Source of the DNA: Methanothermococcus sp. Ax23
Lineage (GTDB): Archaea; AGJL01; Methanococci; Methanococcales; Methanococcaceae
DNA length: 64,000 nucleotides
Reading direction: 5' to 3'
Assembly (NCBI RefSeq): GCF_049075655.1
Contig: NZ_CP157522.1
Span: forward strand, 1,120,001-1,184,000
Shown: in pieces, positions 4,930-27,240 of the stretch
Layout: each line of letters begins with the position of its first letter
How positions within the stretch are numbered: position 1 is the stretch's first letter
The notes under the pieces: generated by a model
What the model saw: the letters and a program-made list of their open reading frames with translations, nothing else
Told to the model about the DNA's origin: nothing
The model's database searches: none
Program-made: the position numbers and the translations under genes

Positions 4930-5010
4930 ATTTATTGAATTTTAAATTATAAATTATTAAACTTATTTTTTTACGATAAACCGCCGAGAAAGCCAACGAT
5001 TTTAATCGTT

Positions 5011-5047
5011 ATACAAAACATAGTTTTGTAAAATCTCTTACGAGATT
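5011..5047. repeat. Double-hairpin insertion (37 bp) within the left-end hairpin
   Basis: TACAAAAC-ata-GTTTTGTA plus AATCTC-ttac-GAGATT; removal restores CCAACGATTTTAATCGTTGG. Confidence 0.7.
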
Positions 5048-5373
5048 GGATGAGAGGCGCACATCATTTTTTTTATATACTCCACTACATAATATATGAG
5101 TGTAATTAGAATAATAGCATATATATAAATTTGGTGAATTCCATGCAAGTAACCAGAGTGCTGACAATAAACCTAACCAGAAGTTTAAATAATGAACAAT
5201 TAATAATCATAAACCATTTAACCTATTCAGCATCAAAACTCTGGAATACATCCAACTACGAAGTAATACAGCGAAACATTAAACCAAATAAAATAGATGT
5301 TCAAATGAAGAACAACTTCTGGTTTAAAAACCTGCACTCACAGTCAGCACAGGCAGTATGTCAAAAACTTCAA

Positions 5374-5420
5374 ATTAGACGAAAACCTTCGGTTTTCGTT
5401 GCTCGCTTGCTACGCAAGCG
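5374..5420 (+). repeat. Double-hairpin micro-insertion, frameshifting tnpB (47 bp)
   Basis: ATTAGA-CGAAAACC ttc GGTTTTCG-TTGC-TCGCTTGC tac GCAAGCG(A). Confidence 0.88.
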
Positions 5421-5813
5421 ATTGCATGGCAAAACTACTTCAAACAACACACTAAAAGACCACGATACCAACCAAAAGATGGACACTTTCCCGTAAAATG
5501 GAAGAAGCAAGGTTTCAAAATCATAGGCAATAAGTTAAGATTATCCTTATCTAAACAAACTAAAAACTATCTCAAAGAGAAGCATGGTATCAAGTGCAGG
5601 TATCTATGGGTAGGGTTATCGAAAACTCTACCGCTTGATACCATGCAGGTTAAAGAAGTTGAGATAGTTCCGCAGACCATCTATGGGATAACCTACTACA
5701 TACTTCACTTAATCCATAAGAAACCAGTAATTCAAGAACCTATCAAAGAAGGTAATATATTAAGTATTGATTTAGGAATTAAGAATTTAGCAACAGCAAT
5801 AACAAACACAGGT

Positions 5814-5861
5814 ATCAGGCGAAAACCTTCGGTTTTCGCTACTCACCAACATCAGTTGGTG
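5814..5861 (+). repeat. Double-hairpin micro-insertion, in frame in tnpB (48 bp, IRRKPSVFATHQHQLV)
   Basis: ATCAG-GCGAAAACC ttc GGTTTTCGC-TAC-TCACCAAC atca GTTGGTG(A). Confidence 0.85.
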
Positions 5862-6550
5862 AAAGCAGTAATCTACGATGGAAGAAGGTTAATTTCTAAA
5901 TTCCGATGGTTTGCTAAAACAAAGGGGAAAATACAGTCTGCACTAACAAAACAGGAGTTAAAGAATAACAAAAGATTATCACACTTAACAGTAAAGGAGA
6001 AAAACTACACTAAGGATTATCTTCATAAGGTCAGTAAGATGATTGTTGATTTTGCAGTAGATAATAAAGTTTCAAGGATTGTAATCGGCGAGTTAAACAA
6101 AGGTATTTCAAATATTAATATTGGTAGAAAGAACAACGAGAAAATACACAAGATACCTTTTGGTAGGTTAGTAAGTATGATACAGTATAAAGCAGAGGAA
6201 AGGGGATTAACAGTAGAACAGGTTAATGAATCTTATACTTCTCAAACTTGTAGTAATTGTGGTGTGGTTAAAAAGAGTAATAGGAAGTATAGGGGTTTGT
6301 ATGTGTGTAGTGAGTGTGGTATGGTTTTGAATGCTGATATTAACGGGGCTTTGAATATTTTAAAAAAAGTATTTTCATGTAGCGTAGCCCTGAACCCGTT
6401 AATGGGTAGGGGTAGTGGGCTTGGCAACCCATGTAGGGTTAGACCCTGCTAAAGAACCCCACGATTTTAATCGTGGGAGTATGTCAGGTTATTAAAAATT
6501 TAAATAAAAATTTAGATAATTTATAACATGCTGAATTATCGGTGAAAAAA

Positions 6551-11822: not shown

Positions 11823-12540
11823 TATTATGGATAAACTACAAACTGTAAGAAAAATAGTCCAGTCGGCATTTTTTATAAAATTTGTAATCTTATCAGCCGT
11901 TCTTTCAAGCTTCTTCTGCCTGTGCATTTTTGGATATATTGAGCAATTCATATTGATGGGGAGTATTTATTTCGTTCCCGTTGTGGTTGTAATATCCTTG
12001 CTCACAATAATTTTTGGAAGAGTATTTTGCGGTTGGATGTGTCCATTGGGTTTTATTTTTGATTTAACATATAAGTTAAGAGTTAAGTTATCAGGGTTAA
12101 AAAAACTTCCAGAAGTTCCAAAAAACATCCACAATAAATTAAAATACTTAAAATATGTTATGTTGGTGTTATTCATTATATTAACATACCATTTTACAAC
12201 ATACGCCTATTGTTCAGTATGTCCTATCGGAGCTCTCACAAACTTATCTGGAACTCTAATTTCATTTGCCATTCTCGTCGGATTTATAGTATTGGGGTTC
12301 ATATATCCCATGGCATTTTGCAGATATTTCTGTCCAATAGGGGCATTACTTGGGCTACTTTCTATAAAACCCATATTTAAATTGAAATTAAATGATAAAT
12401 GTGTAAAATGTAGAATGTGCGAAAGAAAATGTCCAATGCAGATAGAGCTTACTGAAAAAATAGAACAGCATGAATGTATAAGATGCTTTGAATGTATAAG
12501 TTCATGTAGGAAAAAAGGAGTTGATTTTACCTTTAACTGA
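11806..12540 (+). CDS. Membrane 4Fe-4S binding protein (NapH/MauN-like)
   Basis: FCGWMCP, YCSVCP, FCRYFCP and two ferredoxin motifs; its stop codon is supplied by the inserted MITE. Confidence 0.88.
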   Translation: MNFLSDIMDKLQTVRKIVQSAFFIKFVILSAVLSSFFCLCIFGYIEQFILMGSIYFVPVVVVISLLTIIFGRVFCGWMCPLGFIFDLTYKLRVKLSGLKKLPEVPKNIHNKLKYLKYVMLVLFIILTYHFTTYAYCSVCPIGALTNLSGTLISFAILVGFIVLGFIYPMAFCRYFCPIGALLGLLSIKPIFKLKLNDKCVKCRMCERKCPMQIELTEKIEQHECIRCFECISSCRKKGVDFTFN

Positions 12541-12908
12541 CCTACTCCAACGAGTGAACTCGTTGGGTTCTCGCTTACGGTAGTAAGCGAGCAACGAAAT
12601 CACGAAGTGATTTCGTCTAATTTTAGTAGGGTTTAACCCTACACGGGTGGCCAAGCCCACTACCCCTACCCATTAATGGGTTCAGGGCTACGCTATGCAC
12701 TTCCAACCACTACCAGCGGTAGAGTTTTCACTAACCCCACCCATAGATACTTGGACTGGTAGCGTTACTTACTACTAATCTTCATATATTTATATTTTAC
12801 TACTTACTAGCCGATATAATGTCCGCCTCTCATCCAATCTCGTAAGAGATTTTACAAAACTATGTTTTGTATAACGACTGAAGTCGTTGGCTTTCCCGGC
12901 GGTTTATC
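12537..12908 (-). mobile_element. Non-autonomous IS605-derived element (372 bp, subfamily A)
   Basis: Same left end after TTTAC and same GTCAG right end as 4975-6487; no ORF. Confidence 0.92.
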
Positions 12909-15160: not shown

Positions 15161-15536
15161 CTGACCTACTCCAACGAGTGAACTCGTTGGGTTCTCGCTT
15201 ACGGTAGTAAGCGAGCAACGAAATCACGAAGTGATTTCGTCTAATTTTAGTAGGGTTTAACCCTACACGGGTGGCCAAGCCCACTACCCCTATCTCCGTT
15301 TAGGAGATTCAGGGCTACCTTTTGAATTTCCAAACACTACCAGCGGTAGAGTTTTCGATAACCCTACCCATAGATACTTGGACTGGTAGCGTTACTTACT
15401 ACTAATCTTCACATATTTATATTTTACTACTTACTAGCCGATATAATGTCCCGCCTCTCATCCAATCTCATAAGAGATTTTACAAAACTATGTTTTGTAT
15501 AACGATTAAAATCGTTGGCTTTCTCGGCGGTTTATC
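15161..15536 (-). mobile_element. Non-autonomous IS605-derived element (376 bp, subfamily B)
   Basis: Near-identical to 26844-27219; excision restores the host frame CAT|GTA AAT, which fixes the ends and the TTTAC target. Confidence 0.93.
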
Positions 15537-15572
15537 GTAAATAACAATAAAACCGAAAAAATCTCAAAATTA

Positions 15573-15599
15573 CGATTTCCTTCGCTTCGCTCGGAAATG
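15573..15599. repeat. REP-like single-hairpin insertion, in frame (27 bp, RFPSLRSEM)
   Basis: ATTTCC-TTCGCTTCGCTC-GGAAAT, a GC-rich island in AT-rich CDS. Confidence 0.55.
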
Positions 15600-15890
15600 G
15601 ATTTAAACAATATCAATAGGATGAAATTTAAAAAGCCAGATACATTTTATTTAATCTCCATATTTCCTCCAAAGATTGTAAAGCTGATATTTTCAATCAT
15701 GGTTCAGAAACCGAAAATAAATAAGAGAAAATGTAGGAAATGTAAAATCTGTGAGTATGTGTGCCCAGTCAATGCTATATCAATAGATAATTTGAAAATA
15801 GATTCAAAAAAATGTATAAATTGCTATTGCTGTCATGAAATGTGCGGATTTGATGCCATCGATTTAAGAAGTAGGTTTTGGGTGAATTAG

Positions 15891-21772: not shown

Positions 21773-21857
21773 CTGACCTACTCCAACGGGTGAACTCGTT
21801 GGGTTCTCGCTTACGGTAGTAAGCGAGCAACGAAATCACGAAGTGATTTCGTCTAAT
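21773..21857 (-). mobile_element. 85-bp fragment: nested double hairpin plus IS605 right end
   Basis: Matches the MITE right end (1 substitution) and stops exactly at the ATTAGAC boundary of the nested hairpin element. Confidence 0.88.
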
Positions 21858-25015: not shown

Positions 25016-25104
25016 GGCGCGGGGTGCTGTGCCTGGTGGCACAGGGCGGACTTCAGATCCGTCAAGTTCGTTTGAACTCGGGGTTCGATTCCCCCCCAGC
25101 GCCG
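25016..25104 (+). tRNA. selC: tRNA-Sec (UCA anticodon)
   Basis: 9-bp acceptor stem (one G.A mismatch), long D stem, anticodon loop CTTCAGA, long variable arm, 4-bp T stem with TTCGATT, G discriminator, followed by a T-run; upstream TATAAATA. Confidence 0.93.
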
Positions 25105-26160: not shown

Positions 26161-26748
26161 TTATTTTGAATCTTTGAATATATTCTTCATATAGTATTTA
26201 CTATATAGAGTTCCCCCCGGATTATGTGCTAAAATTCTATCCTTAACTAAAAATGTTGTTGCAGGGGCTCTTGAATATTTTTGAAATAATATGTCATGTC
26301 CAATACACAGACCTACAATAATGTTTAAATCTGTCTCTTTTTCATTTAAAATTTCAGCCTGAGCTATGGGATTGCACATGGATTCTCTATTGTTGGGATT
26401 TATTTTTGTTAGGTTGAGCTTATCCTTATCAATTCCGCAAACTTTGCAACATACGGAGTATGTTTTAAAATAGTTTGATAAAATCTTATCCAAAGTTTTT
26501 GCTTCATTTTCCAATCCAATACAGAAAACTATTCCAATTTTTTTACATTCCATCAATTTACAAAATTCTATAATCTCTTCCAATCTGTTCTTTTTCATAT
26601 AGTAAGTTCCTTCAATGTATGATGAAACTGTTGCTATTTTTAAATTTTCATCTTTTTTATATTCTTTCATGACCTTTTCGCTAATTTCTTTTTTACAGCA
26701 GTTTTTTCCATCTGCACATAATTTTTTATCGCATACTGCACATTTCAT
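26161..26748 (-). CDS. DUF1847 Cys-rich metal-binding protein
   Basis: FCIGL, CCKVCG, MCNPIAQA and GLCIGHD motifs. Confidence 0.85.
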   Translation of the reverse strand: MKCAVCDKKLCADGKNCCKKEISEKVMKEYKKDENLKIATVSSYIEGTYYMKKNRLEEIIEFCKLMECKKIGIVFCIGLENEAKTLDKILSNYFKTYSVCCKVCGIDKDKLNLTKINPNNRESMCNPIAQAEILNEKETDLNIIVGLCIGHDILFQKYSRAPATTFLVKDRILAHNPGGTLYSKYYMKNIFKDSK

Positions 26749-26843
26749 TGTTTTACCTTTCTTTATTATATGTTTGTTTAAATATATTTATACATCCATT
26801 ACTTTGAAAATAAACTTATCAACAATTAAAAACTAGATTTTAC

Positions 26844-27219
26844 GATAAACCGCCGAGAAAGCCAACGATTTTAATCGTTATACAAAACATAGTTTTGTAA
26901 AATCTCTTACGAGATTGGATGAGAGGCGGGACATTATATCGGCTAGTAAGTAGTAAAATATAAATATGTGAAGATTAGTAGTAAGTAACGCTACCAGTCC
27001 AAGTATCTATGGGTAGGGTTATCGAAAACTCTACCGCTGGTAGTGTTTGGAAATTCAAAAGGTAGCCCTGAATCTCCTAAACGGAGATAGGGGTAGTGGG
27101 CTTGGCCACCCGTGTAGGGTTAAACCCTACTAAAATTAGACGAAATCACTTCGTGATTTCGTTGCTCGCTTACTACCGTAAGCGAGAACCCAACGAGTTC
27201 ACTCGTTGGAGTAGGTCAG
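26844..27219 (+). mobile_element. Non-autonomous IS605-derived element (376 bp, subfamily B)
   Basis: TTTAC|GATAAACCGCC...GTAGGTCAG; internal TATA at 26955-26966. Confidence 0.93.
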
Positions 27220-27240
27220 ATTTATATATTAAAATTATAA
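26986..27240 (+). ncRNA. Predicted omegaRNA/reRNA-like transcript of the MITE (scaffold plus flanking guide)
   Basis: Begins ~20-25 nt after AAAATATAAATA; multiple covarying stems; ends in the IS605 right-end hairpin. Expression is inferred, not shown. Confidence 0.55.
27135..27185 (+). repeat. Double-hairpin element nested in the MITE right end
   Basis: ATTAGA-CGAAATCAC ttc GTGATTTCG-TTGC-TCGCTTAC tacc GTAAGCGA; absent at the matching site of the full element (CTAAA|GAACCC). Confidence 0.88.

Follow-up and report, generated by a model that had tools for sequence, protein, structure and literature searches.

A candidate small-RNA gene inside protein-free IS200/IS605 elements of Methanothermococcus sp. 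Ax23 and its possible use by TnpB

Why should a transposable element that is too short to encode a protein carry a promoter-like segment and a highly structured unit between its two ends? This question is raised by a 376-nt element located at positions 26844-27219 of a 64,000-nt stretch of the Methanothermococcus sp. Ax23 genome (1,662,948 + 7,732 bp, 31.9% G+C). The stretch, called the window below, covers positions 1,120,001 to 1,184,000 of contig NZ_CP157522.1 (G000:C1:1120001-1184000). An initial annotation had proposed that this MITE (miniature inverted-repeat transposable element) and its copies are guide-RNA cassettes with a promoter of their own, which borrow the nuclease TnpB and the transposase TnpA from other elements. 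On our analysis, self-transcription of an RNA from these cassettes is probable, and the use of this RNA by TnpB in trans is plausible by analogy with studied TnpB systems.

Candidate promoter and predicted RNA

The chromosome carries 27 short two-ended, protein-free elements of the IS200/IS605 type (283-405 nt) and 10 long two-ended ones. tnpB is carried by nine of the long elements (1381-1568 nt); in the tenth, a short element is split by about 1 kb of unrelated DNA, as seen outside the window at G000:C1:1542609-1544034, where the split lies just before the TATA box of a cassette. Three full short copies and one long relative are located in the window:

12537-12908, minus strand: MITE copy 1, 372 nt, 94% identical, with the CCCATTAATGGG hairpin type
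15161-15536, minus strand: MITE copy 2, 376 nt, one difference from copy 3
26844-27219, plus strand: MITE copy 3, 376 nt, a protein-free IS200/IS605 derivative
4975-6487, plus strand: full-length tnpB-bearing relative with ends as in the MITEs, 1513 nt

The coordinates that the initial annotation had given for the three short copies proved exact; each follows TTTAC on its own strand and ends in GGTCAG. Copy 3 consists of the following parts, the target being listed with its predicted role as transposon-associated motif (TAM):

26839-26843, plus strand: target and predicted TAM, TTTAC, with the conserved core TTAC at 26840-26843
26844-26937, plus strand: left end, common with tnpB-bearing elements; subterminal hairpin at 26862-26879 with AAAG 5' of it
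26955-26966, plus strand: TATA-like box AAAATATAAATA, its A-rich upstream side resembling a transcription factor B recognition element (BRE)
26990-27045, plus strand: 5' hairpin of the predicted RNA, which would start at about 26990; homologous to a hairpin inside tnpB
27046-27061, plus strand: linker of variable sequence
27062-27134, plus strand: core of the right-end RNA scaffold, homologous to the tnpB 3' end and the right end of full elements
27135-27186, plus strand: nested double-hairpin mini-insertion (MITE positions 292-341), not part of the ancestral scaffold
27187-27219, plus strand: right-end terminus with subterminal hairpin at 27190-27209, ending in GTCAG; in a module-free copy, its alignment to the HgcC consensus falls in the latter's 3' part
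27220-27235, plus strand: predicted guide, 16 nt of flank at the right end, following the TnpB paradigm

The TATA motif AAAATATAAATA was found in all 27 short copies, in 21 of them exactly and in six with one change. In every copy, exactly 23 nt separate the motif from the first G of the hairpin. This confirms the earlier description of a TATA motif at 26955-26966 followed some 20-25 nt downstream by a GC-rich unit, which begins at 26990. Mean pairwise differences per site were low in the left end (0.03), the hairpin (0.055), the TATA segment (0.066) and the right-end core (0.072), compared with 0.15 in the spacer and 0.26 in the linker, the highest value of all segments. With its fixed length and free sequence, the stretch between TATA box and hairpin thus resembles a promoter spacer. 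A position weight matrix trained on 21 tRNA promoter sites of the same genome scored the MITE TATA site at 6.6 bits on the plus strand and 0.0 on the minus strand.

Alignment to the long copies assigned an origin to most parts of the MITE. Positions 1-94 are the left end common with tnpB-bearing elements, and positions 219-291 and 342-376 match the final tnpB codons together with the right end; like an omega-RNA scaffold, the core lies at the right end and overlaps the tnpB 3' end in the coding elements. Positions 147-202, a 56-nt hairpin, correspond to a hairpin within the tnpB frame, approximately 730-770 nt upstream of the right-end core in full elements. Positions 95-146, the TATA segment, have no counterpart in the aligned long copies, in line with the earlier remark that the promoter segment differs from the full element. 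The MITE is therefore not a single or simple deletion of a resident full copy.

The 230-nt unit folds with -96.8 kcal/mol (z = -7.84), and none of 200 shuffled sequences folded as well, so that the structured GC-rich unit of about 230 nt described earlier is borne out. In an alignment of the predicted RNA from nine cassettes of four species, 95.5% of the cells were paired. Both sides had changed in 15 of 42 pairs, compared with 9.1 ± 1.7 in shuffled alignments (one of 500 reached 15) and 1-4 in slid controls, the 3' third being imperfectly aligned for the most distant members. In most or all of the nine cassettes several pairs are G-U, which favours folding of the left-to-right (sense) strand as RNA.

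Further evidence came from four sequencing runs, available as contigs. X1, X3 and X6 are vent metatranscriptomes; the kind of library of X18 is unrecorded, and this run behaves like genomic DNA. Summed contig depth in the MITE-specific TATA bin was 81 (X1), 20.6 (X3) and 8.2 (X6), and it was 939, 111 and 12.5, respectively, in the MITE-specific linker bin (27034-27064). In X1 and X3 the depth peaked in the last bin of the element (8249 and 1453), and in X6 at 27127-27157 (43.3). In the unique flank it amounted to 24.5 (X1), 9.6 (X3) and 0 (X6) up to 27405. Between the TATA segment and the right end, depth in the metatranscriptome contigs rises approximately 100-fold, and downstream of this segment it is 12- to 100-fold higher than within it. 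X18 remained at 74-279 throughout the element, with 75 in the TATA bin and 105 in the linker bin. Positions 26693-26816 of the window had zero cover in all four runs and are uninformative either way. The contig depths give moderate support for an RNA that starts after the TATA segment.

Such an RNA would be initiated by the internal archaeal promoter 23 nt after the TATA box, at about 26990, and would comprise the 5' hairpin, the variable linker and the right-end scaffold, in all about 180 nt, or about 230 nt with the nested module; its exact start and end are predicted positions. If transcription crosses GTCAG into the flank, each copy would yield an RNA with its own guide of about 16 nt. The 3' flanks differ at all right ends, in line with the different guides that the initial annotation had assumed for the MITEs. 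None of 39 guides has a second TTAC-adjacent site in the genome at up to one mismatch; three sites with two mismatches were found, for AT-rich guides.

Relatives in other species and the HgcC family

A covariance model built from the right-end core was searched over the genomes of the order. Here it detected 40 copies of the core. One copy was found in one of the genus's 12 further genomes, and eleven genomes of two other genera had 1-9 copies each. Twelve of the 13 short relatives, which were found in seven other species, share the order of parts TTAC, left-end hairpin, TTTATATA-like box, hairpin, linker, core and GTCAT. In these twelve the distance from the box to the hairpin is 22-24 nt, and the target is ATAC in one of them. 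The thirteenth is an ordinary deletion derivative. Two other species have a cassette right next to CRISPR-like repeat units (loci L062 and L066).

In an Rfam scan no family reached its gathering score on the element, and on copy 26844-27219 none appeared at E ≤ 10. Five sub-threshold matches of HgcC (RF00062), an RNA family found in Methanocaldococcus jannaschii, were located in the elements of this genome, all of them at right ends, with 24.5-29.6 bits compared with a gathering cut-off of 50. The comparison with HgcC to which the initial annotation had pointed therefore failed to reach the cut-off. Within the order, HgcC is present at the cut-off in 10 of 40 genomes and in none of the 12 other genomes of the genus.

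Two true HgcC loci (150.9 and 119.9 bits) have the same architecture of promoter, 5' hairpin, right-end core and flank tail. They were found to be protein-free cassettes of about 235 nt with the order TCAC, left-end hairpin, TTTTTATATA, 26 nt, start of the HgcC model (5' hairpin), right-end core and GGTCAG. The model extends through GGTCAG and 13 nt into the flank. HgcC and the MITE family occur in the same archaeal order, and the right end of the MITEs matches the HgcC consensus in its 3' part (..GAGGAGGUCAG plus flank). They differ in the target, which is TCAC in HgcC, not TTAC, and in the 5' hairpin, which is unrelated in sequence; furthermore, the MITE family stays below the cut-off. A search for the HgcC 5' hairpin inside tnpB, with a 17-nt pattern at up to two mismatches in five genomes, gave 14 sites and does not speak to more diverged copies; at least 12 of these sites lie within the listed HgcC matches, and G027:C1:49709-49725 does not. 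HgcC RNAs have reportedly been detected experimentally. We file the element family described here as a sister lineage of HgcC.

Ends, target sites and nested modules

In their general build the short elements resemble the palindrome-associated transposable elements (PATEs) of haloarchaea and Geobacillus, which are likewise protein-free IS200/IS605 derivatives with comparable end features. PATEs are described, in the accessible portion of PMC3119063, as lacking terminal inverted repeats and target duplication, having near-terminal palindromes, being too short for a protein, and sharing their ends with tnpB-bearing elements. The 27 elements of 283-405 nt have no coding capacity, and their ends are those of the nine tnpB copies; the single open reading frame (ORF) of at least 30 aa that overlaps copy 26844-27219 (50 aa, GTG start) extends beyond the element end and is a chance ORF. 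Both subterminal hairpins are present in all 27 copies, in paired variants, and terminal inverted repeats are missing. A fixed tetranucleotide precedes the element and TTAC is not repeated in the 3' flanks. Unlike a PATE, the element is not a fusion of two ends. It has an internal TATA box whose spacing is fixed, and its 5' hairpin derives from within tnpB, a layout kept across genera.

TTAC precedes all 36 left ends found genome-wide (TTTAC 29, ATTAC 6, CTTAC 1), a count that leaves out two long copies missed by the left-end pattern owing to a 2-nt insertion. Thus TTTAC, as proposed initially, holds for the three window copies; as the TAM predicted for the whole genome it has to be shortened to TTAC. 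The left-end hairpin occurs as AACGATTTTAATCGTT in 21 short elements, AACGACTTCAGTCGTT in five and AACGACTTTAGTCGTT in one, and the internal hairpin is of the TCTCC..GGAGA/GGGGA type in 16, the CCCATTAATGGG type in 10 and the CCCTTTAAAGGG type in one. The right-end hairpin has six variants, every one paired. Checked in this way over 27 elements, the covarying stems that had been named from the window copies are real. At the right end, a 4-nt motif 5' of the hairpin covaries with the cleavage site, GAAC/TCAG here as against GAAA/TCAT in relatives. In IS608 of Helicobacter pylori, the model element with a Y1 transposase, the recognition pairings are AAAG/TTAC and GAAT/TCAA. The four bases 5' of the hairpins of the MITEs fit this rule by analogy, and IS608 also has the TTAC target, AAAG 5' of the left-end hairpin and a covarying right-end motif in common with them. 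The MITEs differ from IS608 in their archaeal host, the added RNA gene and the lack of tnpA in the genome. They are TnpA-type transposons, yet this genome cannot move them now.

Comparison with related species showed that the element at the copy 2 site is missing in three of them and that at the copy 3 site in one. For the copy 1 site, none of the matches listed joins both flanks in any of five related genomes. A scarless TTAC|flank join, sought at the window loci in related species, was not reconstructed, because these species are too diverged at the junctions (74-86% identity). A search of a plasmid collection with the element gave no match.

The short elements are mosaics of modules that are present or absent. 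A 37-nt left-end segment is missing from six of the 27, and a 30-nt insert is found in four. The nested module of about 50 nt lies inside the right-end scaffold of 18. It belongs to a family of mini-insertions of 47-52 nt, which form a double hairpin, begin with T(C/T)AG and are located in the window at 27135-27186, 5374-5421 and 5814-5862, with further loci at L049, L054, L058, L060, L063, L067, L071 and L072. Mini-insertions also occur inside tnpB frames, where they break seven of nine genes, and as solo copies at other sites of the genome; in other species, the left end, the 5' hairpin loop and a tnpB hairpin contain them. They resemble the SMR-A repeats of Haloquadratum, smaller mobile repeats that attack PATEs and, as far as the same portion of PMC3119063 describes them, prefer PATEs and IS605 elements. 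The idea that the modules are bulge-helix-bulge introns was dropped, though not refuted, as inspection by eye showed no exon-exon helix at the flanks of the tnpB insertions. One solo fragment is present in the window:

21773-21857, minus strand: nested module plus right-end terminus, 85 nt

A 751-nt contig of RNA run X6 extends from this fragment into flank that matches the locus.

Two further features of the window were noted. A selenocysteine tRNA gene (Rfam tRNA-Sec, 64.5 bits) is located at 25016-25103, 1.7 kb upstream of copy 3. Beside copy 2, at 15571-15602, lies a short GC-rich hairpin-like repeat that is missing at the same site in three related species; related genomes contain numerous exact copies of 25-32 nt, several of which lie close to a contig end.

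TnpB, transposase and possible use of the RNAs

In studied TnpB systems, the right-end scaffold is the guide RNA, the adjacent flank is the guide and the TAM equals the transposon target (according to the consulted part of Meers et al.). This applies to the omega-RNA or right-end RNA (reRNA) of ISDra2 and Geobacillus ISGst and to the sense overlapping transcript RNAs (sotRNAs) of Halobacterium, which, as far as the consulted sources describe them, are structured RNAs over the tnpB 3' end and the right end, with the guide just outside the element. The predicted guide of the MITEs has the corresponding position. The scaffold found here differs in that no tnpB accompanies it; it follows a candidate promoter of its own and a 5' hairpin of foreign origin, and is known from sequence.

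The source of this 5' hairpin is a conserved structure inside the tnpB frame, recognized by sequence comparison:

5582-5646, plus strand: conserved hairpin inside the tnpB frame, source of the MITE 5' hairpin

It has a 13-bp stem that encloses a second hairpin. Ten tnpB copies from seven species have kept it, through compensatory, non-synonymous substitutions (loci compared: window 5582-5646 and the tnpB genes in L046, L051-L054, L060, L061 and L070). In the outer stem one position is U-A, C-G or A-U, and the inner stem shows three G-C to A-U changes in a paralogue of the same genome. These comparisons indicate that selection acts on a nucleic-acid structure inside tnpB, which every cassette has placed at the 5' end of its predicted RNA. 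Since the hairpin lies far upstream of the scaffold in full elements, the MITE RNA is not the same molecule as the cognate omega-RNA.

A genome check for intact tnpB and tnpA, as suggested at the outset, was positive for the former and negative for the latter. Of nine cognate tnpB genes, two are intact; their open frames measure 421 and 415 aa, and the latter holds a 408-aa ORF, the only intact copy scanned, which matches Pfam families PF07282 and PF01385. One TnpB ORF of the genome is located at G000:C1:1301135-1302358. By eye, the 408-aa protein has SIDLG, IGELN and NADING motifs and two CxxC zinc-finger pairs. Judged by these motifs, a cognate and catalytically competent TnpB is probably encoded in the genome. 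A third related tnpB (68% identity) is also in an open frame. The window copy at 4975-6487 is split into 5131-5496 and 5643-6452 by the nested modules 5374-5421 and 5814-5862. Candidate guide cassettes thus outnumber intact nuclease genes by 27 to 2, or about 13 to 1. Here, as in two other species, a genome rich in cassettes also has cognate tnpB.

The Y1 transposase domain (Y1_Tnp, PF01797) gave no match in the genome, which is 98.9% complete. The notion that the MITEs borrow TnpA hence fails for this genome, and in this respect the elements depart from PATEs with a Y1 TnpA available in trans. Among 40 genomes of the order, Y1_Tnp is present as intact 144-aa frames in three and as remnants in three more. 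An autonomous element of the same family (locus L046), from one of the three genomes with intact frames, has the order TTAC, left-end hairpin, tnpA (142 aa, at 1438-1866 of the locus), tnpB, right-end core and GTCAT; its tnpB (408 aa) contains the same internal hairpin. As new insertions need TnpA, the copies either stem from a past burst, driven by a transposase lost since then, or were moved by a transposase from outside. Near-identical cassettes, including pairs that differ by one base such as window copies 2 and 3, are present in this genome.

Parts of this picture are already in print. To judge from the accessible portions of the papers, the PATE class, the idea of use in trans, the HgcC RNAs and a right-end-like tetraloop have all been described. 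According to the consulted part of Meers et al. (2023), PATEs often encode omega-RNAs, for which TnpB of other elements would be needed in trans. A PATE-derived RNA is expressed in Halobacterium as far as the available account goes. A literature search, with supplementary files and subscription papers outside its scope, found no description of a conserved dedicated promoter in such elements, of the tnpB-derived 5' hairpin or of HgcC loci as such cassettes. Nothing on cassette or HgcC RNAs was found in the accessible parts of the literature on transcription start maps of M. jannaschii, and the accessible text of a survey of archaeal insertion sequence elements contained none on Methanococcales or TnpB.

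Taken as a whole, the explanation that we find best, and lean towards with some reserve, is that promoter-driven MITE RNAs with flank guides are loaded in trans by cognate TnpB. Each copy would be a non-autonomous, IS608-like IS200/IS605 element inserting 3' of TTAC, which keeps only what its partners need, namely two ends for Y1 TnpA and a small RNA gene. The two or three intact cognate TnpB proteins, encoded elsewhere, would load the MITE RNAs and cut alleles with the empty site, in which the flank directly follows TTAC. The element would then be retained or spread through repair templated by a filled copy of the chromosome. Methanococcales are polyploid. Loading, cleavage and homing are steps proposed by analogy with the studied systems.

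Several observations weigh against this explanation. The TATA match is weak, at 6.6 bits compared with 20-25 bits for most training sites, and an equally good chance site is expected every ~2.9 kb per strand; taken alone the motif is weak, and the comparative evidence is stronger. The RNA evidence consists of metatranscriptome contigs without strand, transcript ends or a silent-stretch control, and the shared segments pool depth from tnpB-bearing copies, solo modules, all loci and all strains. The cassette RNA bears a 5' hairpin missing from the cognate omega-RNA, which TnpB would have to accept. Seven of the nine cognate tnpB genes are broken by the 47-nt double-hairpin insertion, and 18 of 27 cassettes carry the insertion of about 50 nt within the scaffold. 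The fear expressed in the initial annotation that the nested hairpin inactivates the RNA is not obviously justified, as one of the two intact-tnpB elements also has the module in its right end. Three genomes, G017 and G023 (each 99% complete) and G035 (86%), have one or two cassettes and no cognate TnpB at E ≤ 1e-40. Finally, the search with PF01797 speaks against a resident TnpA; without TnpA there is no excision, and hence no empty donor site for TnpB to cut.

A bolder version, which we put forward tentatively, regards the cassettes as selected guide-RNA genes, not decayed transposons: 27 guides would serve two or three nucleases as a dispersed repertoire, and the 5' hairpin would be a second module for TnpB recognition or stability. 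In such a lineage the guide would have been separated from the nuclease gene, given its own promoter and multiplied, a step towards an array-like system. By way of the 5' hairpin, the cassette RNAs might compete for the nuclease or be co-regulated with it.

Conversely, the elements might be purely selfish and moved by TnpA, with hairpins acting as single-stranded DNA, the TATA box a remnant or a chance match and the RNA a by-product. Subterminal hairpins and a fixed target are indeed DNA-level features of TnpA elements; the weak resemblance of the TATA box to tRNA promoters, the tolerance of scaffold insertions in 18 of 27 copies and the persistence of cassettes in genomes without cognate TnpB all suit this explanation, and the origin of PATEs by core deletion is well known (PMC3119063, accessible portion). 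TnpA needs the ends only, yet a TATA box 22-26 nt before the hairpin has been kept in eight species and in the HgcC lineage. G-U pairs suit RNA more than DNA, and RNA-library depth rises 12- to 100-fold beyond the TATA segment, the DNA-like run showing no such rise. We consider a purely selfish nature unlikely.

Rather doubtful, too, is a functional RNA that does not guide TnpB and acts as a decoy or regulator titrating TnpA or TnpB, or a cassette that is a portable outward-facing promoter. A shared binding or regulatory site would explain why the 5' hairpin is also present in tnpB mRNA with compensatory base changes that alter amino acids, and transcription would leave the element into the flank, as expected for an outward promoter. 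Gomes-Filho et al., in the part of their work consulted, proposed that right-end-like RNAs compete for TnpA and described a growth effect on overexpression. This genome has no TnpA to titrate, and the scaffold has its homologue in the right end that overlaps tnpB, which in studied systems is the guide-RNA scaffold. That the RNA signal stems solely from tnpB-bearing elements and solo nested modules, the MITE copies being silent, is very improbable: right-end core, terminus and module are common with other loci and depth was summed over copies and strains, but the linker bin at the MITE junction reached 939 (X1) and 111 (X3) compared with 81 and 20.6 in the TATA bin.

Cas12 descends from TnpB, and the way in which guides came to be detached from the nuclease gene is still an open question. 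Promoter-driven loading of TnpB in trans would make this lineage a natural case of stand-alone, promoter-driven guide-RNA genes, with candidate guide genes that are more numerous than the genes for the nuclease and are kept in different genera of hyperthermophilic methanogens. The HgcC RNA family, now 20 years old, would gain a concrete genomic context and a testable function. The data also sharpen the existing puzzle of near-identical copies in a genome without transposase, and they bring to light a conserved hairpin, at the level of RNA or DNA, that lies inside tnpB and that current models do not explain. If the cassette RNAs do load TnpB, each flank would be a ready-made pair of TAM and target for a thermostable nuclease.

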